Positions 401-55,333 of a DNA stretch of 64,000 bases are shown here, one piece after another. The position numbers were made by a program, and so were the translations under genes. Within the stretch, counting starts at the first letter, position 1. The number at the start of each line of letters is the position of its first letter. The DNA is from a virus: positions 2,764-66,763 of IMG/VR virus record IMGVR_UViG_3300030031_000041, one strand, 5' to 3'. The notes beneath the pieces are model-generated. The model saw only the letters and a program-made list of their open reading frames with translations. It was not told where the DNA came from and made no database searches.

Positions 401-802
401 ATGATCGGGACGTTAGAAGAAGTCATGAAGGATATGAAATATGGCGTACTTGATTTCACAAAGGACGGTAAATGCAGTGGTTGTGGACAATGTTGTAGCA
501 ACTACTTGCCAATATCCAGTAAAGAAATTAAAGAAATTAAACGTTACGTAAAGAAGCATCATATCACTGAACAGAAGCATAATTATCCTTCAGTTGTGGC
601 ATTTGACCTTACTTGCCCGTTCCTGGATGATTCCAAGTCAAAAGAAAAATGTCTTATATATCAAGTGAGACCTGAGATATGCAGAGATTTTGTCTGCAAC
701 AATCCGAACGGGGCAATCAAAAACAAGAAACTTATGCATAAGAAGTACGCAGCAGTAGATATGCGAGAAATATTTTTTGGAGGCAACGGGAATGAACAAT
801 AA
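401..802 (+). CDS. YkgJ/UPF0153-like Cys-cluster protein
   Basis: CSGCGQCC (CxxCxxCC) motif near N-terminus plus second Cys pair; RBS GAGGTG upstream. Confidence 0.5.
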   Translation: MIGTLEEVMKDMKYGVLDFTKDGKCSGCGQCCSNYLPISSKEIKEIKRYVKKHHITEQKHNYPSVVAFDLTCPFLDDSKSKEKCLIYQVRPEICRDFVCNNPNGAIKNKKLMHKKYAAVDMREIFFGGNGNEQ

Positions 803-1394
803 AGAAATTTTACAGAAAGCAAAGGAACTGGTTGAACTTCTGGAAAAACAGGAAGAAGCTGACAAAGTTGTGCTGTCAACACTGAAACGAGGAGATGTGT
901 TTCAGACCACTGGAAAGCGTAAATACAAGGTTCTGGAACAGTATGGAGATACAACGAAAATTATTTCGCTTGATCTGGTGAAAGAAAAGGTAGAGTTTGG
1001 TGATACCTTAGATTACAAAACATCAAAGGTAAAGAAACTGTGTGACACTGAAATCCTGAAAGACTTCGAAGAAGAATTCGGGGCAGGAAATATCGAGACA
1101 CACACAGCAGATATTATCACTGCGGATGGACAGAAATTGTGGACTGTTGATTGTAAAATTCGACCGATTACGTTTGATGAAGCACGAGAATACACAGATA
1201 TTACACCGAACAATGATCTGAACGACTGGTATTGGACGTTGTCGCCATGGTCGACAGAAGAGCGCGGTTGGAGTAGAAACTTAGCCGTTGTTTCCCCTTC
1301 GGGCTGTATCGGCGGCCGCCGTTGCGTCGGGGGTGGTGTTCGCCCAGTTTGTATCTTAAAATCTAATATCTTTGTATCTAAGGTGGAGGAATGA
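792..1394 (+). CDS. DGR variable (target) protein 1, C-terminal CLec-like variable region
   Basis: VR1 at C-terminus; W-rich motif DWYWTLSPWST before VR, ends ...VVSPSG..GVRPV; RBS GGAGG 8 nt before ATG 792. Confidence 0.75.
   Translation: MNNKEILQKAKELVELLEKQEEADKVVLSTLKRGDVFQTTGKRKYKVLEQYGDTTKIISLDLVKEKVEFGDTLDYKTSKVKKLCDTEILKDFEEEFGAGNIETHTADIITADGQKLWTVDCKIRPITFDEAREYTDITPNNDLNDWYWTLSPWSTEERGWSRNLAVVSPSGCIGGRRCVGGGVRPVCILKSNIFVSKVEE
1286..1345 (+). repeat. DGR variable repeat VR1 (plus IMH-like GTTTGTATCTT to ~1357)
   Basis: aligns to TR 2393-2457; 14 substitutions all at TR adenines plus one AAC codon deletion. Confidence 0.8.
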
Positions 1395-1996
1395 TTGTGA
1401 AGAAAAATCTGAAATATTTTGAGGATGAATTATCCAGATTAAGTAAAGAGTTCACAGAATTCAAGAAAAAGCACATCGGAAAGCCGGAAATCGGAAAAGC
1501 TATTAAGCTTGCTGGCATGGAATGGCTGATTCTGGATAATACAGAAAAAGGATATTTTGCCATTTTGAATGGATTTGATGGAAAAGAAAGAACATTTGAT
1601 TCAGATTCAAATAACTGGATTTCAAGTAAACTGAGAAATGAGTTAAACACTCGTTTTCTTAAAAAAATTACGGACGAGCTTGGAGAAGATGCAGTTATTG
1701 AGCTTGATCGAGATTTGCTTTCTCTGGACGGTCAGACAGAATACGGACATTGTAAAGATAGGATTTCACTTTTGACTGTGGATGAGTACCGGAAATATCG
1801 TAAATTGCTGCCGAACATGTCGAAATGGTGGTGGTTGATTACGCCATGGAGTACACCAGTAAATGATTACAGTACAACAATTACCGTTGTTTCCCCTTCG
1901 GGCTATATCTTCTTCATCCATTGCTACAACGTTCTTGGTGTTCGCCCGGTTTGTATCTTTTCTTCTTCAATCTTTGAAACAGGAAATGATGATTGA
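1391..1996 (+). CDS. DGR variable (target) protein 2, paralog of target 1
   Basis: VR2 at C-terminus; KWWWLITPWST motif; start overlaps stop of target 1. Confidence 0.75.
   Translation: MIVKKNLKYFEDELSRLSKEFTEFKKKHIGKPEIGKAIKLAGMEWLILDNTEKGYFAILNGFDGKERTFDSDSNNWISSKLRNELNTRFLKKITDELGEDAVIELDRDLLSLDGQTEYGHCKDRISLLTVDEYRKYRKLLPNMSKWWWLITPWSTPVNDYSTTITVVSPSGYIFFIHCYNVLGVRPVCIFSSSIFETGNDD
1883..1947 (+). repeat. DGR variable repeat VR2 (plus IMH-like GTTTGTATCTT to ~1959)
   Basis: 65-nt alignment to TR with 10 mismatches, all at 10 of the 18 TR adenines, no non-A differences. Confidence 0.85.
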
Positions 1997-2367
1997 TGGC
2001 GAATGAAGATTTAAAGGTAATAACAAAGGCCAAGCAACTTGCAAAGCATACATTAATAGTTACGAGTAATGCCAGACGATACCCGAAAAAATACAGGTTT
2101 TCACTTGTAGATAAAATGCAAAATAAAGCATTGGAAATTTATGAGTTACTATTTGAAGCCAACCGAACTGATCTGAAAGATTATAAAAGAGAACGATTAG
2201 AACTTCAAACAAAAGCCATTACTTATTGTGATGAGTTGATGTACTTTATAGAACTTTCATATGAATTAGGAATTATCAATTCCGGTGGAATGGAAGCATG
2301 GTCGCAAATGGTAAAAGATATAAAGTACATGACTATTTCATGGAGAACAAAAGACAGAAAAAGATAA
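1993..2367 (+). CDS. avd: accessory variability determinant (Avd)-like protein
   Basis: 124 aa basic helical ORF located between targets and TR/RT, the canonical Avd position. Confidence 0.6.
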   Translation: MMANEDLKVITKAKQLAKHTLIVTSNARRYPKKYRFSLVDKMQNKALEIYELLFEANRTDLKDYKRERLELQTKAITYCDELMYFIELSYELGIINSGGMEAWSQMVKDIKYMTISWRTKDRKR

Positions 2368-2392
2368 TTTTCACAGGTTATGCACTGCGAAT

Positions 2393-2457
2393 ACCGTTGT
2401 TTCCCCTTCGGGCTATATCAACAACAACCATTGCAACAACGAAAATGGTGTTCGCCC
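2393..2457 (+). repeat. DGR template repeat (TR), intergenic, AAC-rich
   Basis: intergenic copy of VRs with A at every variable position (AACAACAAC..AACAAC GAAAAT); 3-prime flank differs from VR flank (IMH* vs IMH). Confidence 0.85.
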
Positions 2458-2562
2458 AACATGGATCACATGCAGACAGAGTAAGCGTAAAGCTGAAATC
2501 AGAAAAGATACAAGCAAATGCATAACCTTTCCGCAATGGACAAACATAAAGGAACAAAATAA

Positions 2563-3582
2563 ATGGATAAAGAAATTGTTGCAAATTTTGAGAATTTATA
2601 TCGTTCTTACAAAAAGGTTAAGAGCGGTAAAAAATTTAATTCAGGTACTGCAAGATTTTCTAATTTGTCTCTTGAAGGCATTCATCTCTTGAAGGAACAA
2701 TTAGAAAGTCAAACGTATACCATAAATCCGTATAATAAATTTCAAATTCATGAGCCAAAAGAGCGAACGATAGAATCATGTGCATTTAAGGACAAAGTAG
2801 TGCAGAGATGCTTTTCTGATTACATTTTGACACCAAAACTTGAAAATATCCTGATTAAATGGAACACTGCCGGGCAGCAAGGAAAAGGGCAACACATGGC
2901 AATGGACGGGTTAAAAAATCAAATGTTGGATTTCTATAAAAGAAATGGAATGAATAGTTGGATTGTAAAATGTGATATTCACAAATACTTTTATTGCATA
3001 GACCATGAAATCATGAAAGATGTTTTGGATTATTACTTTGATGATGATTTTACAGTCTGGTTAAACCATTTGTTTATTGACAGTACAGGTAATCCCGGGC
3101 TTCCATTAGGAAATCAGGTAAATCAGAAGTACGCATTGTTGCTTTTACATTCACTGGATCAGATGATAACGATTGAATTTGGAAATCCATATTACGGACG
3201 ATACAACGATGATTTTTATGTGATTTGTAAAACGAAAGAAGATGCCAGAGAAATTCTTGAGGCAATCCGAAAGATGGTTGAAAGCCTTGGACTGGAACTA
3301 AACCCTAAATCACAAATTGTACCATTTCGCATGGGCTTGTGTTATCTGGGCTTTCATCATTACGTGACTGATGAAGGAAAATATATCAGAAAATTGCGTG
3401 GTGATAAGAAACGAAAAACACAGAGAAAAATCCGAAGATGGGTACGGGCAGTAAATGACAGGAAGATGTTGATAGAAAAATTTCATGAAAAATACGGAGC
3501 ATGCAAGAATCATATGCTTCATGGAAATTGCACCAAACTATGCCATAGTATGGATTTGGATATTGAAAGGAGAATGAAGTGA
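2563..3582 (+). CDS. DGR reverse transcriptase
   Basis: RT motifs: LPLGNQVNQ (DGR-type [I/L]GxxxSQ-like motif 4), YNDDF catalytic box (YxDD), 339 aa. Confidence 0.85.
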   Translation: MDKEIVANFENLYRSYKKVKSGKKFNSGTARFSNLSLEGIHLLKEQLESQTYTINPYNKFQIHEPKERTIESCAFKDKVVQRCFSDYILTPKLENILIKWNTAGQQGKGQHMAMDGLKNQMLDFYKRNGMNSWIVKCDIHKYFYCIDHEIMKDVLDYYFDDDFTVWLNHLFIDSTGNPGLPLGNQVNQKYALLLLHSLDQMITIEFGNPYYGRYNDDFYVICKTKEDAREILEAIRKMVESLGLELNPKSQIVPFRMGLCYLGFHHYVTDEGKYIRKLRGDKKRKTQRKIRRWVRAVNDRKMLIEKFHEKYGACKNHMLHGNCTKLCHSMDLDIERRMK

Positions 3583-4163: not shown

Positions 4164-4925
4164 TTGTTCATGCGAGTAATTTCAACAGGTAGTACCAAAG
4201 GAAATTGTTACGCTTTGCAGTCAAGTGCAGACGAGATTGTTCTTCTTGACTGCGGATGCAACTACAAGAAAATCCTCAGAGGGATTGACTACCAGATAAG
4301 CAATGTTTCTGGCGTACTTCTCTCCCATGAACACGGAGATCACACTGGCAATCACAACAAAACTGTTCGTGAAATCATGAACGCTGGAATCACGGTCTAT
4401 ACCGGAGCAGAAACAATCAAAAATTTAGGCATAACGGACGGAACTATAAAAGCTGTTGCTAAAAAGAAATACTTCAAAATCGACTCGTTCAGCGCAGTTC
4501 CGTTCAGCCTGCCACATACATCTGCAAATAAAGAGCCGTGCCCGAACTTCGGGTATCTAGTGGAACATGAGGAAATGGGAAAGCTTCTTTACCTGACAGA
4601 CTTTGAGCATTGCCGGTACAAATTCAAATCAATGGAACTTAATCATTTGGTTATTGGTTGTAATTACTGCGAGGAGCTGATAGACAGAAACAACTCGAAG
4701 TGGGAGCACCAGATCACTGGGCATTGCTCTTTATCAACTTGCAAGCAATTCGTTAAGCAGAATCGCACAGAATCGCTTCGGACAGTAACACTTGTACATT
4801 TAAGTGGGGATTCATCTGATGCCCGTAAAATACAGCGAGAAATACAAGAAGTTACAGGAAACAATGTTCTGGTTCAGATTGGACGGGCTGGACTGGAAGT
4901 TGACTTGAATTTATGCCCGTTCTGA
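4164..4925 (+). CDS. MBL-fold metallo-hydrolase
   Basis: LSHEHGDHTGN (HxHxDH) motif. Confidence 0.65.
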   Translation: MFMRVISTGSTKGNCYALQSSADEIVLLDCGCNYKKILRGIDYQISNVSGVLLSHEHGDHTGNHNKTVREIMNAGITVYTGAETIKNLGITDGTIKAVAKKKYFKIDSFSAVPFSLPHTSANKEPCPNFGYLVEHEEMGKLLYLTDFEHCRYKFKSMELNHLVIGCNYCEELIDRNNSKWEHQITGHCSLSTCKQFVKQNRTESLRTVTLVHLSGDSSDARKIQREIQEVTGNNVLVQIGRAGLEVDLNLCPF

Positions 4926-5321: not shown

Positions 5322-5693
5322 ATGAAAATTTTCTTAAAAGTGCTGGAAAAGTTAAAGAAAAAACAGTCTTCAAGCAAAATTACAGACGCATATCTCGGAT
5401 GTCAATACGATAAGGGCTGGAATGATGCAATCGAAAAGGTTGAGAAACTGATTAATTCCTATAGCTTATCGGATATGTGGATTCCAGTAGACGTGAAACT
5501 GCCTCCGGAACCAAAACCTAATCATATTTTCAAAGGAGACATATATTTGATTGCTACCGAAAAAGGAACAATTCCATTCAGAGCAATGTGGAATGGAGAA
5601 TATTTTACAGACGGTTTCGAAAAATTGAAAGTAATTGCATGGATGCCTTTGCCAGCTATGCCAGAACCGTACAAGGAGAACAAACATGAATAA
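5322..5693 (+). CDS. DUF551-like phage protein
   Basis: WIPVDVKLPPE ... IAWMPLP motifs typical of DUF551; paralog of 9179..9505. Confidence 0.55.
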   Translation: MKIFLKVLEKLKKKQSSSKITDAYLGCQYDKGWNDAIEKVEKLINSYSLSDMWIPVDVKLPPEPKPNHIFKGDIYLIATEKGTIPFRAMWNGEYFTDGFEKLKVIAWMPLPAMPEPYKENKHE

Positions 5694-6109
5694 AGTAATT
5701 TTGATCGGACGTTTGATTAAAGATCCAGACATCCGAATGGGAACAAATGATACCAAGATTGCCAGATACACGCTTGCAGTCGAAAGACAGTATCGCAAAA
5801 ATAATGAACGCACATCAGACTTCATAAATTGTGTTGCGCTTGGAAAAAAATGGTGAGTTTGCCGAAAAGTACTTGCATAAAGGCATGAAAATTGCGATTG
5901 TCGGCTCATGGCAGACTGGAAATTATACTGACAAGGACGGTAAGAAAGTTTACACAAATGATTGCCTTGTTGCATCTCAAGAATTTGCGGAAAGCAAGAA
6001 GAGCCAGCCAGAAGAACAGTCGCAACCACCAGTTCCAAGTCCAGAACAGGACACAAGTGGATTCATGGATATGCCGTCAATTATGGACGATGAACTTCCG
6101 TTTAATTAA
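5686..6109 (+). pseudogene. ssb: single-stranded DNA-binding protein, reading frame interrupted at A7 tract 5844-5850
   Basis: N-terminal MNKVILIGRL..SDFINCVALG in frame 1 stops at 5856; OB-fold continuation and C-terminal acidic tail DDELPF in frame 2 (5831..6109); deleting one A restores full SSB. Confidence 0.65.
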
Positions 6110-25930: not shown

Positions 25931-26002
25931 AGGGCTATCGCCAAGTGGTAAGGCACAGCACTTTGACTGCTGTATTCGCGGGTTCGAATCCCACTAGCCC
26001 AG
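25931..26002 (+). tRNA. tRNA-Gln (anticodon TTG)
   Basis: cloverleaf: acceptor AGGGCTA/TAGCCCA, anticodon loop CTTTGAC, T-loop TTCGAAT; A1:A72 mismatch, one C-A in T stem; no encoded CCA. Confidence 0.65.
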
Positions 26003-26224: not shown

Positions 26225-26297
26225 GGAAATTTAGTTCAGTGGTTAGAACGCCCGGCTCATAACCGGCAAGTCCTGAGTTCGAATCTCAGAATTTCCA
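26225..26297 (+). tRNA. tRNA with CAT anticodon (Met or Ile2)
   Basis: acceptor GGAAATT/AATTTCC, D stem GTTC/GAAC, loop CTCATAA, T arm CTGAG-TTCGAAT-CTCAG. Confidence 0.65.
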
Positions 26298-26855: not shown

Positions 26856-26927
26856 CGCAGGATAGAGAAGCGGAATCTCGCAAGGTTCATATCCTTGAGA
26901 ACGGCGGTTCAAATCCGTCTCCTGCAA
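26856..26927 (+). tRNA. tRNA with CAT anticodon, C1:A72 mismatch (initiator-like)
   Basis: acceptor CGCAGGA/TCCTGCA, D stem GAGA/TCTC, anticodon stem CAAGG/CCTTG loop TTCATAT, T arm GGCGG-TTCAAAT-CCGTC. Confidence 0.6.
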
Positions 26928-27613
26928 TTTCAAACATGATTAACTCAGTGCAGATAGATTTTCAGTCTAGCTGAGATACAGGGTTATGTAAGATGGAGTA
27001 GTTCGGGATACTGGACTATCAACCATCTTTTTAGCAGAAGTGATTCTGTTAGAGGAGGAAGAAACTTCCAACACACCTTGTAGTGTATCATCATAAAGAG
27101 ACCAAAAGCAGAATCCTTGTGGTCGGCGTACAATAGACGCTTGCTGTGCAAGAATAATCCGTTGATGTGAGTGGTGTGAGAGACCACAGACTAAACGGAA
27201 ATCTCGTTAAGCTGATTTGCCTTGAACCTGAGAAATTAGGGTATAACACAAGAGATTCGTTAAAGTAGCGGTATGGCAATTCATAAAAAAATTTCATGCT
27301 ATAAAAAACATTTTCTGAAAGAACCGTGAAATTTGTGGGTGACACTCCCATGTGTGCTTTGACCGCGGTAAGAAGCTCAGGGTCGCTCCCGAAAGCTCAG
27401 ACTTATCGTCACAGTGGCTGAACATGGTTGCAAGTATGGTGAATAAGGAGAAATCCTAATCGTGGTTGAATATGGTGCATTGCTGTAATGGTATCAGAGT
27501 AGGTTGCTAACCTATCCAACAGAAATGTTGTACACGTTCGAATCGTGTATGCACCGCTCCATCTACCATGAGTAGATAGGAAATCCGACTTTAGCATAGC
27601 TATTGTTGGTTTT
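26928..27613 (+). ncRNA. candidate large structured ncRNA between tRNAs
   Basis: 686 nt noncoding, structured, flanked by tRNAs. Confidence 0.3.
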
Positions 27614-27687
27614 CGGAATGTATCTCAGTTGGGAGAGCGGAGGACGCATAGTCCTTGACGTCGCAAGTTCGAATCTTGCCTTTCCGA
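27614..27687 (+). tRNA. tRNA-like gene with CAT in anticodon loop (atypical G33; possibly degenerate)
   Basis: acceptor CGGAATG/CTTTCCG (one mismatch), T arm GCAAG-TTCGAAT-CTTGC, loop CGCATAG. Confidence 0.4.
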
Positions 27688-48698: not shown

Positions 48699-50273
48699 AT
48701 GGCCGATAATACCATAGATACCCTCAATATACAAATAGACAGTAGCACAACTCAGGCGGTACGGTCTATTAATAACCTTGTAAAAAAATTAGATACATTA
48801 AACACTGCCCTTGGAAATCTTGACATAAGCCGGTTAAATAATTTTTCCAATTCTTTAAAAAGTTTAGGTAGCGTGAATTTTAAAGCAAATGGATTGAATG
48901 CGGCTATAAACGCTATCAATCGTCTTGGAAAATCCGATTTCAGTCAGTTTGATACAGGGAAATTAGGCAAAATTCTTACTGAGATGCAGAAACTTGATGC
49001 TATTCCAGATGTTTCTCCGAGCGTTAGCCGGTTTACAACCGCTATAGCTAAACTTGCCGGTACAGGACAGTATATCGGCAATGTATCAAAGGAACTTCCG
49101 AATCTTGCGACAGGTTTAAATAATGCGGCTACTAAATTAGGCTCTATGAGTGAAGTATCAGCATCCACCAATGCCTTTATTACTTCTCTTGGAAAATTAG
49201 CTGGTGCAGGAGATAAAACTGGAAAGACTGCAAGTCAATTATCAACTCTCGCGCAAGAGGTTTTGAAGTTTTTTGACGTAATGAAAAGTGCACCAGATAT
49301 CAGTTCGAGCACAATAAGAATGACAGAAGCTCTTGCAGTATTAGCATCGTCTGGAAGCAAAGTAGGGCGTGCCACAAGTATCGTTTCGAATTCATTTAAC
49401 ACGCTTTCTTCGTTAGGTTCAAAAGCAAGTACTGTAATCAATGGGCTGACAAATGCTTTTCAAAAATTTGCTTCAAAAGCTATTTCTTTAGGCGGAAAAG
49501 CCGTATCTGCAATCGCAGGTATTGGAAATGCATCTTCTGAAGCTGGTGAAAAAATAAGAAGATTGTCAAATCCTCTGAGTTCGGTAACGAATAAGTTGAG
49601 TGCTCTTTACGCCAAAGGTTTTCTCGCAAAAAGAGCATTAGATGTTCTGGCATCGCCAGTAGAATCCGCAATGAACTATGTAGAGACTCTGAACTATTTC
49701 AACTCTGCGTTCAATCAGGTGGCAGAAGGAATCAACACTGACGAATGGAAAAAAAGTGGCATAAAATCCGCTGAAGCATATGCAAATTCATTCCAGGAAA
49801 GGGCAAAACAGCTTTCACAGAAACTGACAGGATTCGAAATTTCAGATACTGGTGAACTGGCTAGAACCAATACCGCTAGTCTTGGACTTGACCCAGAAAA
49901 AACAATGCAGTATCAGGCAACATTTGCACAGATGGCATCATCTATGGGCGATACATCAGAGACTGCATTAAAATTGTCTAATGCACTCACTATGATTGGT
50001 GCAGATCTTGCTTCTGTAAGAAATATGGACTTCGAGGATGTATGGCAGGACATGGCATCTGGCTTGACTGGTATGAGCCGCGCTATGGATAAGTACGGCA
50101 TTAATATCCGTAATGCCAACATGCAACAGGAACTGTATAATCTTGGGATTAATACCAGCATATCGAAGTTGTCTCAGGCAGATAAAACGATTTTGAGAAC
50201 GATTATCTTGCTAAACAACTCTAAGTATGCATGGGCTGATTTGTCAGAAACGATAAATAGGTCAGTAGCGTGA
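48699..50273 (+). CDS. tail tape measure protein, 5-prime part (exon 1 candidate)
   Basis: 524 aa Ala/Ser/Leu-rich helical; ends DLSETIN.. just before intervening sequence. Confidence 0.65.
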   Translation: MADNTIDTLNIQIDSSTTQAVRSINNLVKKLDTLNTALGNLDISRLNNFSNSLKSLGSVNFKANGLNAAINAINRLGKSDFSQFDTGKLGKILTEMQKLDAIPDVSPSVSRFTTAIAKLAGTGQYIGNVSKELPNLATGLNNAATKLGSMSEVSASTNAFITSLGKLAGAGDKTGKTASQLSTLAQEVLKFFDVMKSAPDISSSTIRMTEALAVLASSGSKVGRATSIVSNSFNTLSSLGSKASTVINGLTNAFQKFASKAISLGGKAVSAIAGIGNASSEAGEKIRRLSNPLSSVTNKLSALYAKGFLAKRALDVLASPVESAMNYVETLNYFNSAFNQVAEGINTDEWKKSGIKSAEAYANSFQERAKQLSQKLTGFEISDTGELARTNTASLGLDPEKTMQYQATFAQMASSMGDTSETALKLSNALTMIGADLASVRNMDFEDVWQDMASGLTGMSRAMDKYGINIRNANMQQELYNLGINTSISKLSQADKTILRTIILLNNSKYAWADLSETINRSVA

Positions 50274-50570
50274 TAAATGCGTAGCTACTGGCAAGTCGCT
50301 CATATCGAAACCGTCAAGTAGGATATGAGTTATTAGTGATGAAATAAGCTGGAAAGCCGTTTGCAACGGTAATCAGAGAGTGAAGGCTATGATTAAAAGC
50401 ATAGTCAACCGCAACGCGTAGGAAGTGAAACTGTAGTTGAGATACTACAGAATATAATCTTCCCAAGAGGCATCACTATCGGACGGTACAGGTGCAGAGC
50501 CTGTGGTAAAAAGGTACGCTGGACATGCATTGTAATAATGCAGAAGTGAGGATAAAAAGCCTTACGATAA
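50257..50570 (+). other. 314-nt intervening sequence (group I intron candidate) flanked by 7-bp repeat ACGATAA
   Basis: removal joins 48699.. frame to 50564.. frame exactly; highly structured, multiple stops. Confidence 0.5.
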
Positions 50571-53500
50571 CAAATCGAAATCAACCGGCAAATCAGATTC
50601 GTATGCTTCAATCTAACTTTGCATCCCTTGGTAGAACAATAGGTTCCTTATTCATTCCTATACTGCAAACAGTACTTCCATATATCAATGCAATAGTAAT
50701 CGCAATACAAAGAATGTTCGCTTATATTGCAAAACTTCTTGGAATCAAACTGTCAAACTTCGTATCATCTACTGGTGGTATTTCTGTAGATACCGGAGAT
50801 ATTGCAGATAATATGGATAATGCCAGTGGCGCAATTGATACAGCAAATTCTAATGCTAAAAAACTTGAAAAAACATTATCTGTTATGTCCTTCGATGAAC
50901 TGAATCAGCTCAACGATAACTCTGATTCTAGCAGCTCAACTACTCCGTCTTCTGGTTCTGGAACAGGCGGTTTGGGGCATATCGGAGCACTTGACGCAGC
51001 TTTGGACGATGCTTTATCTGCTTATCAAAAAGCATGGGACGAAGCATTCAAGAAAATGTCCAACAGAGCAAATGAGATGGCAGATGCTATCGTGAATGCC
51101 TTTAAGAGAAAAGACTGGAAAGGTCTTGGAAAAATCATGGCTGACGGCATTAACTGGGGAATGCAAAAGCTTTATGATTTCATTAACTGGAATAACGTAG
51201 GCCCTTACATCACTAAATTCACCAGTGCGTTCACCCAGACTTTCAACAGCCTTGTTGATAATATCAACTGGGATTTGATGGGACGTACCGTTGGAGCTGG
51301 TATGAATACTATTGTAAATACTGCAAACCAACTTCTGGAAGGAATCGACTGGAAGAACCTTGGTGCTAAATTTGCCAATGGTATCACTGGCCTTGTTCGT
51401 GAAGTGAATTGGGAAAACTTCGGCAATCTGCTTGGAAATTCCTTTATGCGTGGATGGGATATTTTCTCAGGCTTCGTAGAAAATCTCCAGTACGGAGAAA
51501 TTGGAACAGCTGTCGCAGAAGGCTTGAACGGAATCTTTGAAAAGATTAATTTCGGTGAAATTGCTCATACACTTGCAACTGGATTGAATGGTGCTTTTGA
51601 TACATTGGCTTCATTTACAGCAAGCTTTAATTGGGAAAATCTTGTTGATAACATTACAAATGGAATCACCACATTCATGCAAGAATTCAACTGGAAAGAG
51701 AATGGACAGAAGTTAGAAGAATTTATTAACAAATTACTCACGTCACTTATCGAGATTGCAAGGGGTGTCGATTGGGAAGCGTTTGGACACAATGTAGGCG
51801 TATTCCTCAGTGAAATTGACTGGGGAAAACATCTTGCACAGTTACTTACGGTTATCGGAGACGTTCTTGGTGGAATCTGGGAAGGACTTGGAACAACATC
51901 TGCCGGCACATTTGTTCAAGCTATGGCTGTATTTGCAGTTGGTAATAAGCTCATGCCATTAGTTGATACAATTACTAAGTTTTTTACAGGTGATACTGTA
52001 TTTGGAAATCTTTCTAAAGCTGTACGAGGTATGCTGAGTCCCGCAATCACAGAAGCAGTCTCAACAACTATTCCGGCTCTTGGGACATCGTTAGGCTCAC
52101 TTGTTGCAACTGGTGGTGGAATTGCTCTTGCAGTAGATGGTGCAGTATTACTTACCAAGAAATTAGCAGGACTTTTTGAGACCATGCAAGGTGGTAATGG
52201 AATGACTACACAGTATGGTGGTTATCTCCATGATTACGCAACACAGCTGACTGATGTAGCAAATCTTACAAACGATCAATCGGAAGCGTTGTGGCAGCTT
52301 ATTGAGAAGGATGAAGAACTTGGAAAAACTCACGATGAAATGTACTCTGATATGGTTGAAAAATTGAAAGAGTATGGCGTTTCATCCGATCAGGCTAGAA
52401 CAGCTCTTGAGCAGTATGGCGCACAGGCCGGTGTATCGGCTGAATTTGTTGAGGGTATGACTAATCAAATCTCCGCACTTGGAGATGGCGTGTCAGAAGC
52501 AGCTGGTAAATTCGATACATCAAAAATCAGTATTTCGGATTTGAAAGACGAGCTATACTTATTGAGTCTGAAATCTGACGATTTTGGTGGTTCATACAAA
52601 ACAGCCATGGACGAACTTGATAATGCTAATAATGGTGGAACTATCACAAATACCAAAGATGCATTAGATACAGTCTACACTTCATTGAAGAATGCAGGAG
52701 TTCCACTCGATGAACTGAACAACAAACTTGCAAAAGACTTCCCGAACGCTACGTTAGCCACAAAATCAGCAGTAGACAAGAATATTGTTGGAGCACAGCA
52801 GACTATATCAACATCAGTTGGACAGGCATCAAGAGACACTCAAACAGCCACAAATCAAATGGCAAAAAATGCCACAGATGATTTCTCGGAAATCCAGAAA
52901 CAGGCTGATACTTACATGAAAGGCATGGAAACTACAACTACTAGCTCATGGGGAAATTCTTCCAGAGAAGCGACATTAAAGGCAAGGGAGATGAAAAATG
53001 CCGTAAGTACAGAACTTGGAAATATGGACAAATCTGTAACAAGCCATTTCCAAAGTCAGTACAACATTGCTTATAAGAAATGGGAGAATATCGGAAGAGA
53101 TATCTCTTCTTATGTTTCTGGAAGTATGTCAAAGAGTATGGATAGCTCTTTAAATAGCTTTATGAGAACTATTCGCAGCGCATTCAGTGATATGTACAGC
53201 ATTGGCCATAATGCGGCTCAATCATTAAGAAATGGAATGAAATCCGTGAGAATGCCTACGCTTTCGTATTATATTTCTCAGTGGAAAACACATAGCCTTG
53301 GGAACGGCGGTACCAGTTCAACCCCTGTCTATAGTCCGAACTGGTATGCAAAAGGTGGTTTGTTCAAAAATGCATCTGTCATTGGTGTAGGCGAAGCAGG
53401 ACAGGAAGCTGTTCTCCCTTTGGAAAATCGTAAAGCCATGAAATCCATTGCCGACAGCATCATGTCCGGCTATGACGGCAACATGGGACTTACGAAAGAT

Positions 53501-53683
53501 GAGATCATGGAAGCTGTCGAGCGTGGCGTAGTTACTGCTTTGATGAACAATGGTGGTTTTGGCGGTTCTTCACCAGAGTACATCATGAACAGCATCAAAG
53601 TGAACGAGCGTGAACTGGCGCGAATTGTCACAAAGGCTCAGAACAACACAGATTACCGCATGAATCCGTCCCCGGCATATTGA
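50571..53683 (+). CDS. tail tape measure protein, 3-prime part (exon 2 candidate)
   Basis: continues TMP core motif PANQIRMLQ..LGRTIGSLFIPIL; 1000+ aa. Confidence 0.65.
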
Positions 53684-54039: not shown

Positions 54040-54172
54040 TTTTGGTAAAACCAGTAGGCTAGGGTAGCTCCCGAAAAGTGTAATTCCATGATACACCTGC
54101 CTACTGTTTTTATAAATCATGGATCTGTGGCTACAAGGCAGTCACGCATTAACGACATGGAGGTTATCTATT

Positions 54173-55333
54173 ATGAGCGAACAAATCAAAGAATTATCCC
54201 AAAATGAATTAGAAAGAAAAGTAGATTACATATTTTCACATAGATTTAATCACACTCTGCATGCTTATATCGATATTGCAGGTGATTTAACAGCAGGTGT
54301 TTTATTATCTCAAATTATGTACTGGTTTGATAAAGATTCAAAAAATGAGTGCGTCAGAACAAAAATCAAAAAGAAAGGTTATTTTTGGATTGCTAGGCGT
54401 AGAGATGAATGGGCAAACGAAATAAGAGTTGCACCTAAGCAGTATGATTCTGCGATGAAAAAATTAAAAGCTAGAAATTTGGTAGTTGTTGAAAAATTTA
54501 AAATTAATGGTGCTCCAACAACGCATATCAGACCTAATGATGAAGTAATAAATGTTGCTATTAAAGAATGGAAAGAACAAATTGCTCTTGAAATTATCAA
54601 AGACAACGAAGCGGAACAAAGTGACGTGAATTCCTCAAATCAGAATTTACCAGAAGAGGAAAATCACGAAAAAGTAGTGCCAAATGATGATAAACACTGG
54701 TTTTCCCCAAAAGAGGAATTTCCAAATTCCCAAAACAAGGAAAACCATGGAATTTCCCAAAATGGGAAAATGGAACTTCCCCAAAATGGAAACTCTTTAA
54801 TTAATAAGAACTATAATAAAGATTTAGATGAGGTTTATAAAAAGAGGGTTAAAGATTCTGATACTACTAAAGTAGTACCAGTAGATTCTCCATGTCCGGG
54901 TAAGCCGGAAACAAGGAGCATCCAGTCTCCACTCGGAATGGGAATAAGCGAAATCCTTTTGAGGAAAGGAATAAACCAATATTGGAATGATGTAGGATGC
55001 GAAGAGTATGAAGAATTGAAAACAAATGTCACTAATGTCATATTATATTTTTTGGAAAAATACAAAATTAAACTAGGCAAAAGCCATGTTCATTTAAAAG
55101 AAGAATATATAAAAACCGTAGTAGAAGGAATTGTTACAGTACCAGACGAGATGATTGAGTTGATAGATGCTTATGGCTTTGAGTATATTTATAAATCATG
55201 CATTGACATGTATTTTGATACAAAATTCAGAGAAGATACCAATTATCGTATTTTTCATTTCATAAAAGGTGATATTAGGAAAAATATTGCAATGAAACTT
55301 TCAGACCAAATAGAGTTGATAAGCGATAAATAA
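54173..55333 (+). CDS. replication-initiator-like protein (inserted module)
   Basis: RBS GGAGG before ATG 54173; N-terminal wHTH-like region, Asn/Lys-rich middle. Confidence 0.45.
   Translation: MSEQIKELSQNELERKVDYIFSHRFNHTLHAYIDIAGDLTAGVLLSQIMYWFDKDSKNECVRTKIKKKGYFWIARRRDEWANEIRVAPKQYDSAMKKLKARNLVVVEKFKINGAPTTHIRPNDEVINVAIKEWKEQIALEIIKDNEAEQSDVNSSNQNLPEEENHEKVVPNDDKHWFSPKEEFPNSQNKENHGISQNGKMELPQNGNSLINKNYNKDLDEVYKKRVKDSDTTKVVPVDSPCPGKPETRSIQSPLGMGISEILLRKGINQYWNDVGCEEYEELKTNVTNVILYFLEKYKIKLGKSHVHLKEEYIKTVVEGIVTVPDEMIELIDAYGFEYIYKSCIDMYFDTKFREDTNYRIFHFIKGDIRKNIAMKLSDQIELISDK

Follow-up and report, generated by a model that had tools for sequence, protein, structure and literature searches.

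Diversity-generating retroelements (DGRs) abound in gut phages, and as a DGR the one described here, carried by a 64,000-nucleotide stretch of viral DNA (IMG/VR record IMGVR_UViG_3300030031_000041, positions 2,764 to 66,763, one strand; hereafter the window), is an ordinary one whose system type is already known. In phage BPP-1 of Bordetella, with the gene order mtd-avd-TR-brt, A56 is the known priming nucleotide, and the RNA primer pairs better with the sequence for the initiation of mutagenic homing (IMH) that follows the variable repeat (VR) than with its counterpart next to the template repeat (TR), IMH*, a difference proposed by Naorem et al. in 2017 to set the direction of homing (PMC5703328). 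The Bordetella DGR RNA forms an avd:spacer (avd:Sp) ‘cPRT Stop’ duplex, and such duplexes, 13 bp long on average, occur in 207 of the 278 DGRs examined (bioRxiv 2023.10.23.563531). Small DGR targets consisting of a DUF6273 domain only have likewise been published: tgt2 of phages nd4 and nd12 (Baykov et al. 2023, PMC10743442), targets of the Faecalibacterium phages Lelie and CP11 (PMC11792537), and a core-genome protein of the Toutatis-like phages (bioRxiv 2024.10.15.618418). The nd4/nd12 paper assumes an Mtd-like receptor-binding role, and its text makes no mention of replication or gene modules (PMC10743442). Our analyses indicate that the window carries a DGR that is genuine and complete and very probably active, and we regard it as highly likely that the region is a complete, functional DGR of a gut phage of about 78 kb, probably infecting Lachnospiraceae, operating by the mechanism proposed below. 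An initial annotation, made from the sequence alone, had described a complete DGR with two tandem targets, a description borne out by mismatches restricted to adenines, an Avd protein, a reverse transcriptase (RT) resembling that of Bordetella (bRT), targets with a C-type lectin (C-lectin) fold, and adenine-specific hypervariability of the VRs in related phages.

The cassette has the order target1-target2-avd-TR-RT, all on the + strand, and the window sequence contains the three repeat copies where the initial annotation had placed them, with homology extending slightly past the interval first reported. The intergenic TR (2391-2457) contains 19 adenines, mostly in AAC or AAT codons. VR2 (1881-1947) aligns with it without gaps and differs at 11 positions, all of them TR adenines and mostly A>T (13 when 1948-1949 are included), and VR1 (1284-1345) corresponds to TR 2393-2457 minus one AAC codon, with substitutions exclusively at TR adenines and mostly A>G. 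An ungapped comparison of TR 2391-2459, which has 21 adenines in 69 nt, with VR2 1881-1949 places 13 of 13 mismatches at TR adenines (P ~5e-9; P values are hypergeometric); between TR 2393-2459 and VR1 1284-1347, which is shorter by a 3-nt deletion, the figure is 16 of 16 (P ~3e-15), the first mismatch of VR1 outside adenines being T2392. Re-alignment agrees with the narrower counts first given, namely 10 substitutions in VR2 at 10 of 18 TR adenines within 2393-2457 with no change elsewhere, and 14 in VR1 within 2396-2457, all at TR adenines, besides the lost AAC codon. The TR does have A wherever the coding copies differ, since every mismatch tabulated falls on a TR adenine. Within the 64 kb, the TR pattern with N at each A matches only TR and VR2 (0 matches in 100 shuffles), the conserved 3′ block GGTGTTCGCCC occurs three times only, and a search for a third VR, which covered this part of the ~78-kb genome, found none. 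In the VR reading frame, the TR adenines are confined to AAC, AAT, TAT, ATC, CAT, ACC and GAA codons, so that mutation to a stop codon is impossible, and about 1e10 protein variants can be generated from them.

The genes that accompany the repeats are all intact, with coupled start and stop codons. Target gene 1 (792-1394) encodes 200 amino acids from an ATG at 792 preceded by GGAGG 8 nt upstream (the mechanically called open reading frame, ORF, starts at TTG 777), and target gene 2 (1391-1996) encodes 201. The avd gene (1996-2367, 123 amino acids) lies between VR2 and TR and its start overlaps the target-2 stop (TGATG); the RT gene (2563-3582, 339 amino acids) follows the TR. Because starts and stops overlap, between an upstream gene for a CxxCxxCC protein and target 1, between targets 1 and 2, between target 2 and avd, and between RT and the next ORF, the block reads as one operon; a promoter and terminator scan returned sites no commoner than in shuffled sequences. 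The initial annotation had pointed to an Avd-sized ORF and an RT downstream of the targets, and both stand: the 123-residue protein, identified as the four-helix-bundle accessory protein Avd, matches phrog_3206, ‘Avd protein of DGR’ (E 2.5e-24), with no match in a sequence search of the PDB, and the RT, with a YNDDF catalytic box and an LGNQVNQ motif, matches phrog_1423 (E 5.9e-87).

The nature of the RT bears directly on the most radical alternative, that this is not a DGR at all and that a group II intron or retron RT happens to lie beside ordinary paralogous repeats. The RT's top NCBIfam match is indeed a group II RT/maturase model, at 103.7 bits, far under its 300-bit cutoff. When the RT was compared with profiles, as the initial annotation had suggested, and with solved proteins, its best relative in the PDB was 8ub7_A (328 amino acids, E 3.8e-26), the sole DGR RT among its matches there, ahead of the best group II RT (E 4.7e-12) by 46 bits. 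We take 8ub7_A to be the Bordetella bRT of the cryo-electron microscopy study; in the alignment with it, LGNQVNQ falls on I181-G-S-L-T-S-Q187 and YNDD on YMDD, and Q187 of bRT has been reported to contact the incoming deoxynucleoside triphosphate. The 339-residue RT is also shorter than the group II RT/maturases that it matches in the PDB (427 and 562 residues), an Avd gene adjoins, mismatches occur solely at adenines and, leaving aside the RNAs described below, no group II intron or other Rfam family reaches its gathering score in the window and none reaches even E<=1 in 2300-2620. The group II or retron alternative is thus effectively refuted, and we give it next to no credence.

Related phages connect the DGR to ongoing variation of its targets. 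We examined 80 IMG/VR loci whose RT is 81-98% identical to that of the window. All three repeat copies are present in 72 of them, mostly at the same spacing, the others being cut by contig ends or rearranged, and the RT ORF is intact, with 339 amino acids, in 70 of the 80. In the 144 TR/VR pairs of equal length from these 80 loci, 1491 of 1596 mismatches lie at TR adenines and 105 elsewhere, A making up 30% of the TR; the adenine substitutions comprise 807 A>G, 600 A>T and 84 A>C. Several TR alleles also depart from the VRs at the beginning of the repeat, with CTATTG where the VRs have CCGTTG. As to the spectrum, in the window itself the changes are almost all A>T in VR2 and almost all A>G in VR1; skews of this kind at TR adenines could come either from misincorporation bias of the RT or from selection. 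A search with target 2 gathered 4299 proteins, and among the best 120, which are 83-92% identical, variation is confined almost wholly to the codons holding TR adenines, piling up at residues 164-165 and 172-182. The 72 distinct DGR-bearing loci contain 70 distinct VR1 cores and 71 distinct VR2 cores, and pairs of them with at most 3 differences in 1069 nt of target sequence outside the VRs nevertheless differ on average at 11.9 and 11.5 of the 33 VR-core positions.

Sister phages without the machinery, located by a scan with the upstream CxxCxxCC gene, provide the counterpart. In eight loci (L088, L096, L098, L101, L103, L111, L116 and L117) avd-TR-RT is cleanly deleted and both targets are kept; the junction, where GATTTAAAGGTAAT meets TCCATAGTCTGG, is identical in all eight and fuses codon 9 of avd with the final ~40 nt of the RT gene. 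Other loci retain target 1 alone (L086, L094) or a truncated avd and no RT (L102, L121). Among close pairs of DGR-deleted loci (n=4, at most 10 differences), VR2 is identical in 4 of 4 and VR1 in 3 of 4, and one exact target-2 protein occurs on 24 contigs, the six places listed all lacking avd-RT. Hypervariability in the population is tied to the presence of avd-TR-RT, and sister phages with and without the clean deletion amount to a natural experiment opposing hypervariable to frozen VRs. This comparison is as near to a natural knock-out control as sequence allows, although it does not prove that the copy in the window is active today, and it gives, at the population level, the pattern expected of ongoing mutagenic retrohoming in this lineage. 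A relic, with TR/VR differences that date from past activity and a window copy that no longer diversifies its targets, seems to us very improbable. It would accommodate the 3-nt deletion in VR1 and the ease with which relatives lose the machinery, through the clean avd-RT deletion in at least eight loci, through repeat-recombination deletions (L079, L065) and through a YNDY box in two. It fits poorly with intact ORFs and coupled start and stop codons, with the complete lack of mismatches outside adenines over 69 nt for VR2 and 64 nt for VR1, with conserved RNA elements, and with near-identical DGR-bearing relatives that almost never share a VR when close DGR-deleted ones usually do.

Several relatives record rearrangements and length changes of the repeats. 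In L079 (3356-5016) target 1 is joined at VR1 directly to TR-spacer-RT, with target 2 and avd lost; in L065 (2827-5165) VR1 is joined to VR2 and a single target is left; and in L027 (7-5991) T2-avd-TR is duplicated, at a contig end, so that this case may be an assembly artefact. These loci show recombination among the three repeats. VRs with in-frame indels of 3-9 nt relative to their own TR occur in L014, L030, L053, L059, L022 and L074, with all three repeat copies 61 nt long in L022; such indels are consistent with slippage on AAC repeats during cDNA synthesis or integration. Two of the related loci have YNDY in place of YNDD in the catalytic box.

Immediately downstream of the repeats, VRs and TR diverge in the manner of an IMH and an IMH*. 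Both VRs are followed by (A/G)GTTTGTATCTT (1346-1357 and 1948-1959), within an IMH-like flank of VR1 reading AGTTTGTATCTT (1346-1357) and one of VR2 reading GGTTTGTATCTTTTCT (1948-1963), whereas the TR is followed by AACATGGATCAC (2458-2472), a partial match identical at 6 of 12 positions, which overlaps a 4-bp hairpin (2460-2463/2469-2472, loop GATCA). The initial annotation was right that the same IMH-like sequence follows both VRs; its further statement that the TR lacks that sequence needs amending, the TR being followed, as in BPP-1, by an IMH*-like sequence that has diverged. The distinction is maintained in the 72 loci, with (A/G)GTTTGTATCTT after both VRs and AAC(A/C)TG(G/T/C)ATCAC after the TR. 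The IMH thus differs from the IMH* in sequence, and its part in homing is putative.

The RNA spanning the end of avd, the TR and the 105-nt spacer that separates it from the RT gene appears to be structured, and in related loci the spacer is more conserved than the TR or the end of avd. A consensus fold built from 42 distinct sequences predicts a 13-bp duplex bracketing the TR, between a strand just after the avd stop (2375-2388) and the strand GCAAATGCATAACCT in the spacer (2514-2528); 98.5% of cells in this long-range duplex are paired, its variation consisting of one-sided, wobble-compatible changes only. For the whole consensus structure 99.4% of cells are paired, compared with 28-39% when the partners are slid, and one pair covaries in a hairpin at the TR boundary (2460-2472), being CG in 25 sequences and AU in 16. 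Further on, an invariant segment (2529-2562), formed by a predicted UUCC/GGAA stem-loop (2529-2554) followed by an A-rich stretch, holds the ribosome-binding site of the RT gene. By its position and length, the duplex 2375-2388/2514-2528 would correspond to the avd:Sp ‘cPRT Stop’ duplex.

The duplex strand is immediately preceded on its 5′ side by a candidate primer strand, AGAAAAGATACAA (2501-2513), whose last base, A2513, is spacer nucleotide 54; its identification as the primer segment comes from position and complementarity, read by analogy with BPP-1. It is the exact complement, over 13 nt, of positions 1951-1963 in the VR2 flank (0 of 500 shuffles), and over 9 nt, spacer 2505-2513, of TTGTATCTT (1349-1357) in the VR1 flank. 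With the TR flank it forms only ~5 pairs, and the longest exact complement between spacer and TR flank, 5 nt, lies at another position. We compared spacer-IMH complementarity in three DGRs, those of the window, BPP-1 and nd4. In the BPP-1 sequence, Sp 48-56 (AGGTGGTCA) complements the VR IMH exactly over 9 nt and ends at A56, and exact matching to IMH* extends over 5 nt at most. Because the spacer segment 2501-2513 is invariant, the primer-IMH pairing is beyond a covariation test. We had also entertained the inverted repeat between VR2 flank and spacer as a new guide element and dropped the idea; the notion that pairing between primer and IMH gives directionality is not new, because Naorem et al. 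2017 already noted this relationship for BPP-1.

On this basis we propose the following mechanism, in which the priming site, the stop duplex and the IMH-primer pairing are inferred by analogy with Bordetella phage BPP-1. Target1-target2-avd-TR-RT, same-strand genes that are closely spaced or overlapping, would form one operon in the recombination/replication module. In its transcript, the RNA of the avd end, TR and 105-nt spacer would fold so that the 13-bp duplex (2375-2388/2514-2528) brackets the TR. The RT-Avd complex would prime cDNA in cis from the adenosine ending spacer segment 2501-2513, predicted to be A2513, and copy the TR with random misincorporation opposite adenines, and the mutagenised cDNA would replace VR1 or VR2. 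The direction, from TR to VR and never the reverse, would be set by the VR flank AGTTTGTATCTT, the cDNA-linked RNA primer complementing the VR flank much better than the diverged TR flank. The outcome would be up to ~1e10 variants of a β-hairpin at the C-terminal tip of two paralogous 200-residue proteins.

Some observations weigh against this interpretation. The activity of the window's own copy is inferred rather than seen. VR1 is one AAC codon shorter than the TR, which would imply for its last rewrite either slippage or a different TR allele as source. The Avd protein scores 41 bits against NF033474 (DivGenRetAVD), with a cutoff of 80, and is also under cutoff with the Pfam models, and the RT motif has N at the usual S of motif 4 of DGR RTs, [I/L]GxxxSQ, and its final Q replaced by L in 22 relatives. 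Fifteen loci have TTGCATCTT (T>C) in the VR2 flank, uncompensated in the invariant spacer segment, and phage nd4 shows no comparable spacer complementarity. Finally, no BPP-1-type DNA hairpin was found after the VRs (z +1.4 for the VR1 flank, z -1.6 for that of VR2), and neither a cruciform nor a GC-rich hairpin after either. A DNA stem-loop 3′ of the IMH is an enhancer in BPP-1 and is not universal among DGRs. As for the RT motif, the relatives with LGNQVNL (the L043-L071 group and others) have diversified VRs all the same.

The initial annotation had described the targets as small paralogs of ~200 amino acids without signal peptide. They are indeed 37% identical to each other (E 4e-24), and neither has a signal peptide or a hydrophobic segment, their N-termini being charged (maximum 19-residue Kyte-Doolittle value 1.1-1.5). 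PHROG 9958, whose function is unknown, matches both (E 3.9e-20 for target 1). Target 2 exceeds the gathering threshold (GA) of DUF6273 (PF19789), with 27.7 bits against 23.5, and target 1, with an N-terminal helix and a DUF6273/C-lectin-like domain, stays under it at 18.0 bits. Fold prediction, also suggested initially, was sensitive to alignment depth. With a shallow alignment (33 sequences, three subfamilies) AlphaFold gave target 2 a predicted local distance difference test (pLDDT) score of 40.6, and with 86 diverse representatives one of 94.8, for an N-terminal helix followed by a compact α/β domain. The domain is a DUF6273 domain of C-lectin fold with the VR (codons ~164-183) at its C-terminus, where in the model it forms a surface β-hairpin at the tip. 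In the helix (residues 2-27), hydrophobic residues at heptad spacing (L7, F10, L14, L17, F21 and F24) suggest, in the predicted structure, an oligomerising neck as in collectins.

The target family is widespread. A profile run against 1.84 billion representatives retrieved 1970 clusters at 50% identity, 169 of them at E<=1e-30, and a BFVD search found many viral DUF6273 proteins, small and large; against the PDB, the target 2 sequence gave only spurious calmodulin matches. Most family members are 185-240 amino acids long and match from end to end. A few, with 355-411 amino acids (P0242, P0249, P0250, P0260 and P0297), have two domains, two tandem copies of the whole 200-residue unit being fused, and these are the fused counterpart of the tandem target pair seen here.

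What the targets bind, and where, is a matter of graded likelihood, and we guess, provisionally, that they are oligomeric modules that bind ligands, as adhesins on the virion or as binders that are released or stay inside the cell. As a default we retain the first, Mtd-like or tentaclin-like receptor-binding or adhesion modules on the virion that a DGR would vary for host-range or adhesion switching, an idea that we hold tentatively, at slightly less than even chances. Mtd, TvpA and pilin-tip targets are marked by a C-lectin fold with a C-terminal VR, the heptad-spaced helix hints at an oligomerising neck, and such a role has been proposed in print for the nd4/nd12 tgt2 and Toutatis homologues. 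Yet the genes sit in a RecT/SSB (single-stranded DNA-binding protein) operon, with the tail genes over 44 kb away and a similar placement in nd4, Toutatis and Lelie, and the proteins have neither a signal peptide nor a β-prism or sandwich domain for docking on a fibre. The architecture is not Mtd-like, the model consisting of one helix and a C-lectin domain, and the gene lying in that operon.

Alternatively, although we consider it unlikely, the targets might not be virion parts at all and might act as early-expressed hypervariable binders inside the infected cell or lysogen, such as anti-defence inhibitors, decoys or superinfection-exclusion factors. Four phage lineages agree in placing the genes in an early recombination/replication operon, no export signal is present, and the targets are kept where the DGR is deleted; in addition, a neighbouring metallo-β-lactamase (MBL) hydrolase resembles the anti-Pycsar protein Apyc1 in relatives (18 bits in the window). 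Gene position is, however, weak evidence of timing or location, and we found no homology to a known anti-defence family. We also know of no DGR target that acts as an intracellular binder, and to our knowledge the C-lectin DGR targets characterised so far are all surface-exposed. We keep this alternative alive, in a form that includes small signal-less C-lectin proteins released at lysis and at the same low probability, because of the gene position and the lack of a docking domain and of an export signal. If true, this DGR and its counterparts in nd4, Toutatis and Lelie would diversify a counter-defence or host-manipulation factor and not a tail tip.

The surroundings of the cassette are those of a phage genome. 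TerL, at 32.6 kb and ~30 kb from the cassette, is followed by portal, capsid, tape measure, a 1322-residue tail protein and endolysin, and a large serine recombinase lies at 15.1 kb. The cassette is preceded by a RecT-like fragment and the CxxCxxCC protein gene and followed by the MBL-fold hydrolase and SSB; in relatives the order is AAA ATPase, RecT, DUF5052, CxxCxxCC, T1, T2, (avd-TR-RT), two small ORFs, MBL hydrolase, SSB and DNA methylase. The placement of the cassette in the early region by the initial annotation is fair as judged by this neighbourhood of RecT-like, SSB and CxxCxxCC genes, timing being read from position. TerL relatives are found mostly in Lachnospiraceae genomes, which makes this family the probable host, tentatively because they are only 55-65% identical. 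Scanning GTDB genomes with the RT turned up no prophage, and a megablast of 8 kb against GenBank phages no match.

Other features of the window deserve mention. The MBL-fold hydrolase gene (4164-4925), three genes 3′ of RT, matches Pfam Anti-Pycsar_Apyc1 in relatives, whereas the window copy scores 18 bits for a cutoff of 50; it may be an anti-defence gene in the cassette's operon. The SSB gene (5686-6109) is split into two frames at a run of seven A (~5843-5849), relatives having a single 141-residue SSB; the split reflects an error of sequencing or assembly, or else a genuine frameshift. A full-length ROOL RNA (RF03087, 384 bits) lies at 26920-27477 (+), within a cluster of five tRNAs (25931-26002, 26225-26297, 26856-26927, 27474-27556 and 27614-27687). 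A non-coding insert of ~250 nt (50274-50524) divides the tape-measure gene into ORFs 48699-50273 and 50525-53683, which match successive parts of one PHROG profile (1-195 and 198-914); the insert folds unusually well (z -2.84; 0 of 200 shuffles) and matches no Rfam family even at E<=1. It may be a self-splicing intron of no recognised class or some other RNA element inserted there. An int-alpA RNA (RF02996, 54 bits; 54052-54122) stands directly 5′ of a 404-residue DnaD-like/replication-initiator ORF (54119-55333); both lie between the genes for the tape measure and the tail protein, where a replication gene is unexpected, and the pair may be an inserted element.

Compared with BPP-1, the locus shares the order target-avd-TR-RT, a C-terminal VR in a C-lectin-fold protein, adenine-specific mutagenesis, and a GC-rich block followed by an IMH in the VR and a diverged IMH* in the TR. 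It also resembles BPP-1 in a sequence upstream of the TR that forms a duplex with the spacer, and in a spacer primer strand that favours IMH over IMH* and ends ~55 nt past the TR (A56 there, the predicted A2513 at nucleotide 54 here). It differs in having two tandem targets instead of one, these being 200-residue single-domain DUF6273 proteins without the β-prism and sandwich domains of Mtd, encoded in a replication/recombination operon and not beside tail genes. Its TR is 67-69 nt long, in contrast to 134 nt in BPP-1, no stem-loop was found downstream of the VRs, and its RT is only distantly related to bRT (E 3.8e-26), with LGNQVNQ instead of IGSLTSQ. TvpA of Treponema denticola and the Bacteroides pilin-tip protein (4EPS) are cellular, exported and surface-anchored, whereas the present targets are encoded by a phage and lack an export signal.

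Closer parallels for the targets are found in nd4/nd12, Toutatis and Lelie/CP11, where one TR also serves two DUF6273 (C-lectin-like) targets, the small one being a homologous single-domain protein flanked by short helices and 28-33% identical to target 2. In both groups some relatives keep targets without the DGR. The small target sits among genes for a DNA polymerase III subunit, SSB and DnaC in nd4, among methyltransferases and a replication initiator, upstream of the antiterminator Q, in Toutatis, and likewise among replication or early genes in Lelie. The initial annotation had called targets outside tail-fibre genes atypical, which holds insofar as tail-fibre targets dominate the literature and fails insofar as small DUF6273-only targets in such surroundings have been published. 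The main target of those phages is, however, a large immunoglobulin-domain ‘tentaclin’ or Hoc-like protein beside the RT, with the small target 9-17 kb away, whereas here the two targets, both small, are tandem paralogs placed immediately upstream of avd, the 64-kb window yielded no large target, and the host is probably a member of the Lachnospiraceae and not Faecalibacterium. The occurrence of twin small targets in a replication/recombination operon, as in three other phage lineages, means that the receptor-binding role assumed for them merits experimental test. The locus is also a second, evolutionarily distant case of a spacer RNA that complements the IMH better than the TR flank, which bears on how DGR cDNA homes to the VR. 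Although nd4 lacks such complementarity, a spacer strand favouring the IMH both in this DGR of a Bacillota phage and in BPP-1 supports, as far as sequences can tell, pairing between RNA primer and IMH as a shared mechanism of homing direction.

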